DNA of 64,000 bases from the NCBI GenBank assembly GCA_051294905.1, contig CM119373.1:31124001-31188000 (forward strand), given 5' to 3'. This DNA is from Botryllus schlosseri. Lineage: Eukaryota. Positions 24,189 to 34,773 of the stretch are shown in pieces. The notes beneath the pieces are model-generated. The model was not told the origin of the DNA. It saw nothing but the letters and a program-made list of their open reading frames with translations, and did no database searches. The position numbers were made by a program, and so were the translations under genes. Position 1 is the stretch's first letter. Each line of letters starts with the position of its first letter.

Positions 24189-25085
24189 GAAATATTAAGC
24201 CCATGAATGCTATTGTTTCCATGTATGTATATAAAGTGTTATAACTGGCCTACGGAATATAGAATGGTCAAGAATCTCTATTGCGTCTTGCGTAGAGTAA
24301 TTTTATTGTATTTTGTCGTACGGTGAATTGATTTCGTAACGATCACAGTTTATTAAAAGGTTTTGGTCAACCTACATTCAGAAATGTTTCACAGTTTGTA
24401 CTGATTATTACTAATTTGTTGACTGCGAATGATGTTTAATACTGTGGGGCCTCGTCATCCCTACAGTATGTATATAAGGCGTTATACACTGCTACGCCCT
24501 TATTTTTAAGCAGGACCCTAGGGATTGAAGCCCTAGTTTTAGGGAAACAAAATCCGAAGTTTACGGTGCGAACCCTTATTATAGGCTAAATAAATAATTA
24601 ATGAAAAACAATATAAAATCTTATAAAATCTTGAACAACTATACCATTAAATTAACTAAATAATGAACACTAAAACCTGTTTGAACAATCTGCAATGCCT
24701 GTATTAAGTGGCATCTTAGTTAAGGGTAGTATCATGCGGTCCGATTAAGAGGATCATAGTGATTATAATTGCTCTGAAGACATGACGTCCTTAATGTTGA
24801 TATGTTATATTAAAATTGATTGAAACATTATAATCGCAAGTATACTGAAGAATATTATGATAAATAAGAATTGATATTTGAAATGCATTGATATTTACGG
24901 CAGGAAAGGCCGTCGCATCAATTATATGCGAAAACAAACCTTGGAGTATTAAAAATGTTTGTTAATTGTGTATGATGATGTATAGGTTAAACCATGCCTT
25001 GTGTTATAATTGATGGATGATGTGTATGCCAATTTTAACCAAGCTTTGCATAGAGTTACCACATTTCCGTCTGCGCAATTAACTT

Positions 25086-25109
25086 ATTGGAGTATTTGGT
25101 TGTATTAAG
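25086..25109 (+). other. Embedded copy of ascidian-type spliced-leader sequence ATTGGAGTATTTGGTTGTATTAAG
   Basis: Identical (25 nt including the next G) to the reverse complement of 42,428-42,452; matches the stolidobranch SL as I recall it. Confidence 0.8.
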
Positions 25110-25334
25110 GTTCTAGATTATCAGTAGATAAGGGTAGATTAAAATTCTGGACCCCAGGGTCATTGTCAACTTGAGAAGAAACAATCCTACAACTGTTGTT
25201 GCTCCAATCACCATTTACAGACGTCGTCAAGATACTAAAGCAAACGAAAGGCAACGCTTTACTAGGAAGTAACCCGAACAAGTGTGGACTACTCGCATAA
25301 CAATCGTTGTGGAGCTGCACTATAAAAACAAAAT

Positions 25335-25352
25335 TGGTGGCCAGTACGGGGA
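25335..25352 (+). promoter_or_regulatory. Primer-binding site complementary to the tRNA-Ile(AAU) 3' end
   Basis: TGGTGGCCAGTACGGGGA is the reverse complement of TCCCCGTACTGGCCA-CCA, the recalled metazoan tRNA-Ile(AAU) 3' end; 15 nt are shared with element B. Confidence 0.85.
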
Positions 25353-25381
25353 ACTTCCAGTGTTCAGACGTTGACCAATCG

Positions 25382-31400: not shown

Positions 31401-31895
31401 AAAATACAGCACAAATTGATGGCCCATTGTCGACACGAGCCTTGTGACAAATCGGTGGATGGGTACCACCCCTGGGAAGATATTTGTGAAATCATTAAAA
31501 TAAAAACCGGGGTGGAAATGGAAATTGAAGAATTAAAAGATGTCATGAAGAGGTGCGACAGGGCAATTGTCTCAGAAAATGGATTGGCGGCTGCCCACGG
31601 GCATACACGAGGGAAGCCTCCTCAATATTGTAAATATGAAGGTAACGAGGTACTGTACCACATGACGACCGAAAAAAATGCGAGACAGATAATGTCCGTG
31701 GGCATTGAACGGATGAACAGGAGATTCATTCATTTGAGCAAAACGCTAACAAAGAAAAGCAAAAGGCGGAATGTGGTAATTTGCATGAAAGCAGCAAATC
31801 TAAGGAATGAGGGACTCGAATTGCTGCAATCAAACGTACAAGACGTGGTATTGTGTGAAGGTCCTATACCACCAACAATCATACAAAACATGTAA
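28422..31895 (+). CDS. pol: Pol: aspartic protease - spacer - RT - RNase H - Tpt1/KptA-like domain; no integrase
   Basis: FLADTGS protease; LLDLKKAYF and YIDD (30,441-30,452) RT; ETDASDVG, ELKAL, ITDN, DGLSR RNase H; C-terminal CRH, DR, AHGH, LYHMT, MNRRFIHLS, IPP of Tpt1. Confidence 0.95.
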   Translation: MDGRGTESRYTIVKKRLGVLIDPVNQLPDNLIIQHTKTVHNSSLPLFTFLDMPDDPLQPDFTELFGGQLLYLIDTATGTKFLADTGSIPNLIMKKVVITKYPRSWEKRQPIDMELTGIGGSSQVDSFVVIDIGGLPVPFVTGSGVPLNIVGLKWIEEVQQLAGITTEFKTPSNANEELSLASFLEENHCDQGNGTKVGSSISYTVTDDGLMDAANQFSVERKMAAGASTEMGLTTGASDELKIATNVLPNPWETIGVETGTPADTINEYVECGIPAGVERDLHEKTGPKCFRGCTCPNNLDESAHRCMTTATVTNTFPKGLNEAAIAGQPDIRPDTSDKESGDFKMHVSPEKGSPAEKESVGVTVGAGTRRDQRPTSKDLALSPPTPTTRSSRISNQPMTGPVTRYVLQKDTHPRVKTELEDLCAKSVALAKLPYKPPDLTTPENTIIADDVWKAVYTPFASELEDLRGHLGGLQTMKYKCDIELKDPSTKPFVSGPYNLKGEGQAKALKEAVDNFLDLGVIERGFAEWKLAIFVVPQKMNERQKQEDGWKQAWRVVQNLQPLNAAIKSIEVPPPLVPDVKQLAQGREVLSLLDLKKAYFHMDVTERSKQYVGIAIKGMHVRWRKMPMGLKTAVALWSANMQECVVKPITEKYQQHMKQVGRTDEENATPMEAYIDDIFLSTKTVEDHLILLRMVFEQLAKMKLTVSINKCFIGKRRVNLLGATLTGKEIEVQPERIRALRELSPPHNVYELRGWIGALRYISEHIPELSLKLAKFDALTGKVPATQGRVTPVLWTDELLQDFKMAQAALDDAKVLYHLDPNLPIFVETDASDVGFGSIIFQTEKGGKPPFEKVYPIAYYSQKWVTPAAKAYDPCTKELKALKDSVEKWQSMLRALPFTIITDNTGVFGLLKRMTDKAKNPSPKPLIQRWLNHLAGFQIKEVIHLSKMQVFTSDGLSRSYWMEMAAGEEDPHVWATIPKEKGVPYQQKKPRLEKIQHKLMAHCRHEPCDKSVDGYHPWEDICEIIKIKTGVEMEIEELKDVMKRCDRAIVSENGLAAAHGHTRGKPPQYCKYEGNEVLYHMTTEKNARQIMSVGIERMNRRFIHLSKTLTKKSKRRNVVICMKAANLRNEGLELLQSNVQDVVLCEGPIPPTIIQNM
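28461..28467 (+). other. -1 ribosomal frameshift slippery heptamer A AAA AAC
   Basis: In the correct gag phase five codons before the gag stop; the -1 frame is the open pol frame (VKKRLGVLIDP). Confidence 0.8.
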
Positions 31896-32033
31896 ATACG
31901 TATTGGCAGAGTGTGAATATTATAAGAAGGGTAAATGGACAAAAACGCTATAATGAGGGCCAACGAAAAAAACTGAAACCTTGTAACTGGAGAAAATGCT
32001 GAGTCAGCATTTTTGTAGCTCGTGTGGAGAAAC

Positions 32034-32057
32034 GAGAGAATAAAAAGAAAAAAAAGG
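32034..32057 (+). promoter_or_regulatory. Purine-rich tract after pol (candidate plus-strand primer)
   Basis: GAGAGAATAAAAAGAAAAAAAAGG; element B has AGAAAAAAAGGAAGGGGGGAGAAA just after its pol stop. Confidence 0.45.
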
Positions 32058-34773
32058 TTTAAGTAATAGAAGAAGGCAATTGAATTAAAGGATCATGGGG
32101 AATCATGATGAATGACGACAAGTAGACACACGAGTAAAGCGGGCATATACTGCACTAGTTCCGAAATGTCATATTGAATCCAAAACATCGTTCTGAAGAA
32201 CTACGGATAGCAGCCTCGGAAATTCGGTCCCGGTACAGCTTGGGAGATTCTGGCCTTGAGGCTGGAGACTGTCACACGACACATACGGCTTACGGTCTAT
32301 AGTGTCTATATGTCTGCTGCAAAATCGCCTTCGGAAAATATATTACCGAATAAATACGTGGATGAAAGCCGAAAACTTGGTACACTGTTACATGAAATCA
32401 TCGAGAAGTATAGCCTCATGACCGTTTTCGGTATGGTACACTGTCAAAATTAATACGAACAGATCAACGCCGAATTTTGCGTAATATTTACTGAGGAATC
32501 GGCTGATCAAGCGATCAGCTGTTAGCCGCCATCGAAAACGAAACAGCTATCGCGCTTGACAGGGGTTGTAATTGTGAGCAAATGGCCCGAAGGCCACCAT
32601 TCCACGGTGAAATTGACATTGGAGAATATAAAATAAAACTAAATATTTGAATGCAAACCGAGGATGTTAGTAAACTGTTTCATGATATCATCATCTCATC
32701 ACCTATCTCAGTATGGAACACAGATACACCGGCTTTTGCGTGAAATCCGCAATGCGTTAGGTAGGCTAAGGGTGGGTTTCAAATAGTCGACTTAGGCCCG
32801 TCGTCGGGCTTAAGCTACACCCCTCAGGCTGAAGTCGGTTTCAAAACTGTGACTTGAGGGGATTTCCCCTCCAGCGTGCGCTTTCTTAAGACAGATATCC
32901 AAGCCAGCTAGGGGGTAGGCTGAAGTCAACAGTGCTGATAACTGTTGTGCTGTTTGTTGAAGGATATTGGCCGTTCTTCTGATGTATAGCTTGGCAAATC
33001 AGATTAGATCATTTTATATTGATGTCAGGCAGTTTGGAACAATGTTTATATCACAAACGTGACAAGTTGGTATCATATACCGTTATAGTGGGATTTACAG
33101 TGGCATGCTGCAGGGGTCTTCGTATACTGAACGGATTTCAATTCAAATGGATAGCCAGAGCCCTGAGGCACACAGGACACATCAGCACTTCTTCCATAAC
33201 CGCACCATATAGTATCAAGCAATGTTCCCCATGACCACCATAACCCGCGTTCGCTGGCTCCAATCGATTCGGTTACGAATATGATATGACTATGGTTACG
33301 AGACACGGGAAGTGATATTTGGGGTAAGGCGTAAAGGTGCCTAGCGTTGGACTTGCGAATCCCGCCCATTTTGGCAAAGAAAGGTCAGCGGTAAGAATCC
33401 GCTACGGGTAATGATGCTGATCAGTGGTCATGGGGAACATCAGTTAATAAAGTGCATGTATCGAAGAAGCCCCAAGATGAGATTTTAGGTTGCGGCAGAT
33501 CAACAGATCCTTTATTGATAGCCTACATGCTACGTCAACTCATCATTATAGTTTTCTCGACTGGTTACGTCTTTTAACTTAGGCACGTTGACGTTTTGAC
33601 AGTTTGGCTTTGCTGTGGTTATAGCCAAAAAGTGAACACATGACGCATCACCAGAAAATGGAAAATATGTATCATGCTCATTTTGTTGAGCCTAATCAAT
33701 GTTGCACCAATTGCACGCAACTGTGATTGATTGCAGGGTTCCCCTCAATATCCATTTTCGCTCCACCCCTATGAGCATTGTCATAAATATGTTTAACTGC
33801 TACTTTCTAGAATAGTGCCGACTACATGGAACTTTGATCAATATGTGTCTATTCAACCAGCATTGTATTGATATTCCGTTCACTGCACGCGCACCGAATT
33901 TCAGCATACTGGATAAAGATCCAGAAGTTTCGGAAAGAAAAATGACATGACTTTGCATGAAGTTGTTAGTGAATTGCTATAGATGTGAAGCAATGTTCCC
34001 TCTAATTTTTGACGAGTCTGTGCGTACACTCAAGAACTCACTACGCAGACCCTCGGAAAACAGTGCGTAACGACTAAAAAAGGGTCATGACTTCAGATTT
34101 TCTGTGTGCATAAACCGTGTCAGCACTGCGCATTTGCGCATGTATGCAGCTTAAAGGGGCCATTGATGTGAAGTGATATATGCCAATAATATTCAAAGTG
34201 CAGTACATGCTAACGCTTCAGTAATCCAAATGTTTTGAGATATATGTCAATTCAACATTGATTTTCACAGATTTGCTACCCAATCATAGTATCGACATAG
34301 CAGCATAATCAGTCCATGTAAAAATTATTATATAGCTGTGCAATGTGCCACCAGAGTGAGCTGCAGGCTGTGAAACAAATGATAGCACCATTCTTTTGGA
34401 ACACAGAGAAAATCAAACGAGCAGTGATGTGTCAAGCCATCAAAGAGGTATTTATCTATCTATCCGTATATGTGAGTGTGAATGCGCATACCAATATCCA
34501 GTTCCTTTTATATTAAGGTTTTTCTGAAAGCACTTTGCTCGAGCTTTATCCAGTTCCTCGCACCATGATACCAACACTGGGCTGTAAGTATGTCATTTCC
34601 ATTCATATTTATACCATGCTTGATAAGTTGTTTTGTGATAGATGCTGACCCATCTGATGTGCCAACTTATGGAGTAGCAGTTGGGAGCTGCATCTGCTAG
34701 TTGTTTGGGCAACATTTCCAACCAGATCAAGGTAAGTTTGCATTCATTACTAGGCCATCAATTGTCTGTTTGT

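Follow-up and report, generated by a model that had tools for sequence, protein, structure and literature searches.

A retrovirus-like element of Botryllus schlosseri with a rotated gene order and Merlin/IS1595 transposon ends may be an opened DNA circle

How does a retrovirus-like element make a complete copy of its genome when its primer-binding site (PBS) lies in the middle of the integrated copy and pol lies at the end? The question is raised by a 64,000-nucleotide stretch of Botryllus schlosseri DNA (assembly GCA_051294905.1, contig CM119373.1, forward-strand positions 31,124,001 to 31,188,000), hereafter the window, which contains two such elements, A on the plus strand and B on the minus strand. 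We give a probability of roughly 0.7 to the reading that the integrated copy is a DNA circle, opened at the junction of two Merlin/IS1595 transposon ends and excised for its cycle. Support for an excised circle comes from five lines, none of them direct: the gene order of a related family (C), selection on reverse transcriptase (RT) and RNase H, a spliced leader (SL) that marks the likely RNA 5′ end, linkage between the two element ends, and a splice pair divided by the end junction.

The element boundaries are Merlin/IS1595 transposon ends. Element A is 39,928 bp long. It starts at C3:31116235, which is 7765 bp before the window, and ends at window position 32162, 267 bp past the pol stop codon, where its right end is a short, imperfect inverted repeat of the left end. 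The final base was identical in the window copy and in 14 of 14 other A right ends read (one a duplicated segment), and both end motifs were common to all 30 A copies with both ends read. Most of these copies (25) have exact 8-bp target-site duplications (TSDs), one has a 9-bp TSD, one has a TSD with one mismatch, and three have none. Element B is 19,443 bp long, with its right end 494 bp past the pol stop and CAGAACGG as its TSD. Run X24 has 577 RNA reads of the empty B site, with a single copy of the 8-bp target, and contigs of X7 and X8 also show it.

1..32162, plus strand: in-window part of element A; left end GGTAC.. upstream of the window
32143..32162, plus strand: right end of A, ..CACTAGTTCC
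32163..32170, plus strand: 8-bp TSD of A, GAAATGTC; the second copy precedes the left end
35831..55273, minus strand: element B, ends GGATC..GATCC (from ends, TSD, and empty site)
35823..35830, minus strand: right 8-bp TSD of B (empty-site comparison)
55274..55281, minus strand: left 8-bp TSD of B (empty-site comparison)

Ends starting with GG and TSDs of 8 to 9 bp are a hallmark of Merlin (PMC8101967, in part). The elements have these features, with GG..CC ends and an 8-bp TSD, instead of the TG..CA ends and 4- to 6-bp TSD of LTR (long terminal repeat) retroelements. The Merlin/IS1595 nature of the ends was absent from a preliminary description of this locus and was found here. That description had placed A at 24200..32233. 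The right end now moves to 32162, and the left end lies outside the window. It had also put the element ends about 190 to 340 bp after the pol stop; the distances found here are 267 bp for A and 494 bp for B. Its statement that no LTR pair flanks the elements was borne out, since self-comparison revealed neither an LTR pair nor an LTR-like terminal or SL-PBS repeat within A or B. The fixed ends and TSDs of the 30 A copies further indicate that copies break at one point, and no copy had the random breaks or the LTR-gag-pol-env-LTR structure that it had named as contrary to its view. Two A right ends lying 13.9 kb apart on C5 were considered as a tandem unit and rejected, as their identical downstream flanks identify a segmental duplicate.

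The gene order of A runs from the left end through transposase 1, env-like 1, env-like 2, cargo (including transposase 2, a leucine-rich repeat [LRR] protein, an inhibitor of apoptosis [IAP], and a ubiquitin-conjugating E2), U3, SL, R/U5, PBS, gag, and pol to the right end. B shares this order (left end-transposase-env-env-cargo-SL-PBS-gag-pol-right end), so the preliminary description was right to place env and cargo genes upstream of an internal SL/PBS block and pol at the element end. The left-end genes of A lie 0.3 to 7.8 kb upstream of the window and comprise transposase 1 (a 327-amino-acid [aa] frame), env-like 1 (859 aa), and env-like 2 (1165 aa). Both Pol proteins consist of a protease (DTG/DSG motif, from translation), RT, RNase H, and a C-terminal Tpt1/KptA domain. 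A Pfam scan of 28 + 3 open reading frames (ORFs) found no integrase (rve) domain in A or B Pol, no tyrosine recombinase, and no match for the env-like genes. The transposases matched PF12762 (DDE_Tnp_IS1595), with DDE motifs visible in their translations. As a lead only, env-like 1 resembles a class I fusogen by its features (scores 0.86-0.88).

25660..28482, plus strand: gag, 940 aa, with a CX2CX4HX4C knuckle (domain scan, translation)
28461..28467, plus strand: −1 slippery heptamer A AAA AAC, predicted gag-pol frameshift site; such a site stands at the gag end in 10 of 11 families
28413..31895, plus strand: pol, protease-RT-RNase H-Tpt1/KptA without integrase (domain scan; RT and RNase H dN/dS 0.04)
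36325..39528, minus strand: B pol, protease-RT-RNase H-Tpt1 (domain scan)
39507..41969, minus strand: B gag (domain scan), with a phase-1 splice donor
47717..51319, minus strand: B env-like 2, mucin-like stalk and C-terminal transmembrane segment (sequence features)
51423..53828, minus strand: B env-like 1, basic cleavage site, hydrophobic peptide, heptads, and transmembrane segment (sequence features)
54009..54949, minus strand: B transposase (PF12762), own ATG after the acceptor (domain scan)

To find relatives, we searched the host's own genome with the RT protein, which returned 67 scored matches. Families D, G, H, I, J, and K are laid out like A and B, with the left end 300 to 430 bp upstream of the transposase, the right end 245 to 510 bp downstream of pol, and an 8-bp TSD. 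Seven matches have a transposase about 130 bp downstream; six belong to family C and the seventh to family E. Family C has the order left end, cargo, transposase 2, SL, PBS, gag, pol, transposase 1, env, env, right end. Its right end carries the A right-end motif and the same sub-terminal sequence as A, here after env2, and each of the four copies read at both ends has a TSD, with a mismatch in one of them. Family E has the gene order of C, and its ends are not fixed. Judged by these sequences, family C is the cyclic order of A cut elsewhere. The order obtained by joining the ends of A (PBS-gag-pol-transposase-env-env-cargo-U3), as the preliminary description had done on paper, is present in linear form in C and E. 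The fixed opening site after pol that it had proposed is fixed within each family and differs across the group, with C opened after env2 and E having the C order. The RT tree makes C the sister of H/I and puts E on a separate branch, among the families that open after pol; neither this tree nor the transposase tree makes E the sister of C. Opening after pol is therefore likely ancestral, with the ends having shifted as a unit, perhaps on two occasions. Because the gene order is rotated in the chromosome, the element likely must loop out as a circle before it is copied into RNA.

Another line of evidence comes from the SL. The 24-mer ATTGGAGTATTTGGTTGTATTAAG lies 230 to 250 bp before the PBS in both A and B, confirming the internal SL/PBS block of the preliminary description, with the PBS downstream of the SL on either strand.

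24200..25085, plus strand: U3-like noncoding region, 5′ border undefined; upstream of the SL and reassorting against R/U5
25086..25109, plus strand: SL DNA copy in A, likely 5′ end of the pregenomic RNA
25110..25334, plus strand: R/U5-like block of the short type (a longer type, about 75% identical, occurs in other copies; copy comparison)
25335..25352, plus strand: A PBS, 18 of 18 bases complementary to host tRNA-Ile(AAT) plus CCA
42429..42452, minus strand: SL copy in B (sequence match)
42208..42222, minus strand: B PBS, tRNA-Ile, 15 nt; 15 of 18 bases, from 42222 downwards

This 24-mer is the "Chordata 1" spliced leader (PMC3795323, in part). It is also the leader of this host, because 807 reads of run X24 end there and run on into a cDNA adapter; it points to a host of tunicate type. 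It occurs 236 times in the genome. Among 18 SL loci sampled, it lies inside both 409-bp LTRs of an ordinary TG..CA element (three loci) and also at the 5′ ends of long interspersed nuclear elements, and the SL can thus be read as the trace of an RNA 5′ end. That ordinary element is 2.2 kb long with a single ORF of about 380 to 420 aa (C1:40613847, C2:25733026, and C5:5782250). The SL is exact across families whose Pol proteins are 53% identical, and in 22 of 30 loci the base directly before it is a G, as expected if the cap is copied. An X7 contig joins env1 to the SL via the first five bases of the SL.

Reassortment also falls at this site. When the 30 A loci were sorted by eye, two R/U5 types were found (about 249 and 291 nt, about 75% identical). 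U3 type a was combined with nine short and seven long R/U5 blocks, type b with nine and two, and type c with two and none; a separate comparison added one type c copy with long R/U5. The switch between U3 and R/U5 haplotypes falls at the SL, which is what first-strand transfer between two RNAs would give. Large deletions ending inside the SL-PBS block were seen at C4:10611087, at C10:1250685, and in a family I copy on C13, and other deletions end outside the block (neither kind systematically counted). The RNA 5′ end is thus likely at the SL. With the RNA starting there, the DNA upstream of the SL would derive from the 3′ part of the RNA, and a circular or tandem template would therefore be needed. 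The "single LTR" of the preliminary description survives only as a U3-SL-R/U5-PBS block with an undefined U3 start.

The elements appear to use reverse transcription, as several observations support. They possess a tRNA PBS, a gag knuckle, and the protease-RT-RNase H series. In families C, E, and I, the PBS is complementary to tRNA-Thr(AGT) instead. Base 18 of the PBS is A in 27 and C in 3 of the 30 A loci, mirroring two genomic tRNA-Ile variants; copying of 18 primer bases is known retroviral behavior. Among A copies, the strongest purifying selection was on RT (dN/dS = 0.04, 14 copies) and RNase H (0.04, 25 copies), below transposase 1 (0.10) and gag, env, and cargo (0.10-0.25). Nonautonomous copies of 12 to 14 kb without RT, RNase H, both transposases, and env1 retain the SL, the PBS, most of gag, and the protease, and all three with both ends read have their own TSDs. 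Selection on RT, together with reassortment at the SL, argues against movement as DNA only. An 8-kb derivative of A (C16:623892-631928) retains 432 bp from the start of the left end, fused to U3-SL-PBS-gag-pol, and lacks transposase and env.

We examined linkage by correlating pairwise distances between segments of 25 A copies, 8 of them nearly complete. The element ends behave as neighbors. Pol core and transposase 1 were strongly correlated across the end junction (r = 0.78-0.85, 14 copies), as were, to a lesser degree, the terminal windows (r = 0.41-0.48). For the 5′ part of gag, the correlation with transposase 1, 32 kb away, was r = 0.68, against −0.18 and 0.31 with the adjacent U3. Linkage decayed with distance along a map cut at the SL (ρ = −0.40) more clearly than along the integrated linear map (ρ = −0.16), and the SL-cut map outperformed it in 59 of 60 subsamples. 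In addition, the cargo between transposase 2 and U3, inclusive, behaves like a module that copies can exchange.

The last line of evidence is a splice pair that the end junction divides. Transposase 1 is preceded by a pyrimidine-rich YAG exactly 17 nt before a conserved Y/H-N-V/I-L start, in phase 1. This acceptor is present in A (29 of 29 readable copies), G, H, I, J, K, C, and E, and in A it lies at C3:31116524. Just 3 of 29 A copies have a Met upstream in an open frame. Downstream of the acceptor, 33 codons are stop-free in 25 copies, with a pN/pS of only 0.39; as we read the sequence, SL addition at the acceptor would place a stop just before these codons. Scanning five families for shared phase-1 donors returned one in gag in all five, AAG/GTGAGA (the slash marking the exon border), and one weak pol site in three.

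27893..27901, plus strand: conserved gag splice donor in phase 1 (last exon base 27895), predicted to pair with the acceptor of transposase 1 at the left end

The donor codons CAA-GGT-GAG are invariant in eight of eight families while neighboring codons vary. As a control, across six families invariant codons were found in 5 of 18 Glu columns of RT and in none of its 15 Gln or 16 Gly columns. B and D keep G/GTA at the donor, and family F, in which no transposase was found, has GGA. In B, the donor is at the homologous gag site (last exon base 40091) and the acceptor precedes the transposase (first exon base 54949). Donor and acceptor are 4.1 kb apart and colinear in C and E; in A and B they are 4.6 kb apart, across the end junction only. 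We infer that the gag donor is spliced to the transposase-1 acceptor. Such splicing is predicted to give a Gag-transposase fusion that lacks the zinc knuckle of Gag and would be packaged to do the work of integrase.

These observations can be assembled into a life cycle. By excision or copy-out, the transposase would join the right end to the left end, and the circle would be transcribed once round from the U3 promoter, with the host SL presumably added to the RNA 5′ end, as its position suggests. The pregenomic RNA would yield Gag and, by −1 frameshift, Gag-Pol, and splicing across the end junction is predicted to yield the Gag-transposase fusion. RT, probably primed by tRNA-Ile at the PBS, would jump at the SL to the RNA 3′ end and produce a new circle, as in pararetroviruses. 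Finally, the packaged transposase would insert the circle at the end junction, which would account for the 8-bp duplications. Should Gag-transposase be made from the circle only, excision would be the step that turns on the integrating enzyme and allows it to be packaged. Circle formation by a eukaryotic Merlin enzyme is proposed here by analogy with bacterial IS1595 members, of which ISApl4 and MTnSag1 form circles (PMC12561309 and PMC5704250, each in part).

Several points weigh against this reading. The preliminary description had taken the integrated form to be an opened circle; order, ends, and linkage fit, and the circle itself is probable, but the right-left junction had no match in the assembly and joined ends were absent from the B joints listed (15 of 23) from four RNA runs, about 3 to 6% of the raw reads. 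B is barely expressed, with X24 depth at or below about 1.3 over the element outside the SL bin. AATAAA or ATTAAA signals lie 13 to 124 bp before the right end, so that read-through would be required, and a pregenomic RNA of 40 kb would exceed known LTR elements, among which Burro is about 30 kb long (PMC6431247, in part). Copy C4:10611087 has an intact TSD yet lacks R/U5. The best linkage cut falls near window position 14700, mid-cargo (ρ = −0.48), a cut at the SL came first in only 7 of 60 subsamples, and there are further low-linkage borders inside the cargo. The linkage test thus does not single out the SL. As to the splice pair, a phase match by itself has a one-in-three chance, 17 of 30 A copies have a weak local mini-exon (ATG G/GTGTGT) that could provide a start for the transposase, and the B transposase has its own ATG after the acceptor.

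Could the elements move without an excised circle? Two RNAs, one from SL-PBS-gag-pol to the right end and the other from the left end through transposase, env, and cargo to U3-R, might be co-packaged and joined by RT in two jumps, the second via the 8-bp TSD from the flanks, leaving the circle as an RT product only. The poly(A) signals upstream of the right end and the lack of joined ends in the assembly and in the B joints listed suit this scheme, as does recombination that is heavy throughout (four-gamete incompatibility, 0.49-0.70). We consider it improbable, because linkage spans the end junction, because the donor and acceptor would have to be trans-spliced from separate RNAs, and because pol and transposase share a strand in C and E, where the intron is 4.1 kb long. 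A slightly less probable alternative is a giant Merlin cut-and-paste transposon that carries a retrovirus-like cargo module and moves as DNA only, its gene order changing by module exchange or by rearrangement of tandem dimers. Every terminal feature is Merlin-like (GG ends and 8- to 9-bp TSDs; PMC8101967, in part), the mid-cargo linkage break is what module exchange by double crossover would give, and Teratorn sets the precedent of a virus carried by a DNA transposon (PMC10175614, in part). Such a transposon would leave unexplained an RT dN/dS of 0.04 among separately inserted copies, the switching of the PBS and its copying of tRNA variants, an SL preserved exactly between families whose Pol proteins share 53% identity, the reassortment at that site, and nonautonomous copies that keep SL-PBS-gag. 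That the window elements are truncated tandem arrays of an ordinary LTR-gag-pol-env-LTR element is scarcely credible, given their base-exact shared ends and TSDs, the lack of an LTR pair, the empty-site reads, and the absence of integrase from Pol here and in the eight closest database relatives.

The lineage extends beyond this genome, as those eight relatives (P0001-P0008, known from proteins alone, without DNA context) are 36 to 45% identical and lack integrase, and at least six have the Tpt1 domain. Further database matches were at most 28% identical. No relatives were found in the viral contigs searched, and metagenome contigs gave generic RTs only (22-27% identical). Within the host genome, family F (C3:28660000-28690000; L126-L129, L167, and L168) is a distant relative, 43% identical, at one rearranged locus. 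Its order is pol-ORF-env-cargo-SL-gag, with a single env-like gene and, after pol, another Tpt1-like ORF, and no transposase was found in the 40 kb searched. Family F is integrated with fold-back duplications, like an endogenous pararetrovirus, and L154 is a further SL-gag piece of it. Loci L155, L158, and L162, and likewise L159 and L163, are more SL-headed relatives or nonautonomous families of the group.

Other features of the window concern the cargo, Pol, and the RNA around B. The cargo genes of A are as follows.

15256..16305, plus strand: LRR protein with a signal-like N terminus (dN/dS 0.18)
16994..17941, plus strand: transposase 2 (Merlin/IS1595, PF12762), own ATG (dN/dS 0.15)
19086..20780, plus strand: IAP with 3 BIR + RING (dN/dS 0.17)
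22525..22980, plus strand: ubiquitin-conjugating E2 (dN/dS 0.10)

Four short, related-looking cargo ORFs (130-152 aa) lie at 20927-21783 and 23117-24188, and the two tested were under purifying selection. A short hydrophobic ORF of about 90 aa lies between PBS and gag (25382-25651). The Tpt1/KptA RNA 2′-phosphotransferase-like domain occupies the integrase position of Pol (31400-31892 and 36330-36820) and is under selection (dN/dS 0.23), and we found no literature description joining this domain to a retroelement. Purine runs after pol are candidates for a plus-strand primer tract. A 16-base likeness between positions 14099 and 42750 was dismissed as chance. Beyond B, at 57037-60521, lies a DNA transposon whose 177-bp inverted repeats (93%) enclose a transposase-like frame interrupted by a stop at about 58043. 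B sits in host sequence (35560-35822 and 55274-55550) with an X24 RNA depth of 75 to 300 per strand, mostly from the empty allele or other copies. In X7 and X8 contigs, plus-strand GT..AG joints run antisense to B (47454-53319, 53370-54360, and 44895-45165, within window 37002-54621) and represent spliced antisense or host read-through RNA.

We found no published description of this layout or life cycle for an animal retroelement, in a search that ran without Repbase, supplements, and most subscription papers. To our knowledge, known integrating retroelements are colinear with their RNA, and the circular pararetroviruses lack an integration step. If our reading is true, the elements would be a third solution, in which a permuted provirus goes together with tRNA-primed RT, env-like genes, and the enzyme of a DNA transposon. 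Integrase and LTRs would be replaceable wholesale, excision would serve as a latency switch in an animal retroelement, and a reverse-transcribed genome would reach about 40 kb. Standard LTR finders overlook such elements, and the splice pair split by the junction offers a cheap, direct test of the circle. With somewhat less confidence than in the circle itself, we favor the view that these are giant reverse-transcribing viruses with an envelope, which form a new lineage in tunicate-type hosts and follow the logic of temperate phages. The latent provirus would be permuted, the Merlin transposase would loop it out, only the circle would make the full 40-kb SL-capped pregenome and Gag-transposase, and the attachment site could move, as in C and E.

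How do these elements compare with known systems? By the features compared, they are not members of Caulimoviridae, Metaviridae, Troyka, or DIRS. They resemble Caulimoviridae in tRNA-primed RT, in a protease-RT-RNase H series without integrase, and, if our reading holds, in transcribing a terminally redundant pregenomic RNA from a circle. The top PDB match for RT was the "Enzymatic polyprotein" 8r0s_A, which we take to be the cauliflower mosaic virus enzyme; the RT tree contained no caulimovirid sequence. Caulimovirids are nonenveloped plant viruses of 7 to 10 kb with no integration step (PMC7660458), whereas these elements measure 17 to 40 kb or more, include cargo and two env-like genes, and have a defined site of integration, with TSDs. 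From Merlin/IS1595 come the PF12762 DDE transposase, the GG..CC imperfect inverted ends, and the AT-rich 8- to 9-bp TSDs, in a group whose bacterial members circularize (PMC8101967, PMC12561309, and PMC5704250, each in part); unlike those transposons, these elements carry a selected gag-pol-env set, a PBS, and an SL, and their transposase is apparently spliced onto Gag. With Metaviridae, including errantiviruses, and Retroviridae they share the CCHC gag knuckle, the −1 frameshift, protease-RT-RNase H, the PBS, env-like genes, and the cyclic order gag-pol-[integrating enzyme]-env (PMC13524379, in part). They differ in having no LTR pair and no rve integrase, in the Tpt1 domain at the end of Pol, and in an integrated form that is not colinear with the RNA; RT is 22 to 28% identical to that of integrase-bearing elements.

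DIRS/Ngaro elements are usually modeled as inserting a circular RT product, and their terminal and internal repeats let an integrated copy make its own full RNA. They too have replaced integrase by another enzyme, a tyrosine recombinase used with such repeats, in contrast to the DDE transposase, TSDs, and lack of such repeats here; the group is named in PMC12440569. Troyka and Kuafuorterviruses are likewise a distinct RT lineage found in ascidians, and were rejected as a match, having LTRs (CG..CG ends), integrase, 3-bp TSDs, and no env (PMC12440569 and PMC11673190, each in part). Teratorn is similar in placing a virus-like genome inside DNA-transposon ends, with circle excision proposed and not shown, yet it joins a herpesvirus to piggyBac and lacks RT (PMC10175614, in part). 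Taken by analogy with these systems, the elements would work like a pararetrovirus with a prophage-style attachment site served by a Merlin enzyme.

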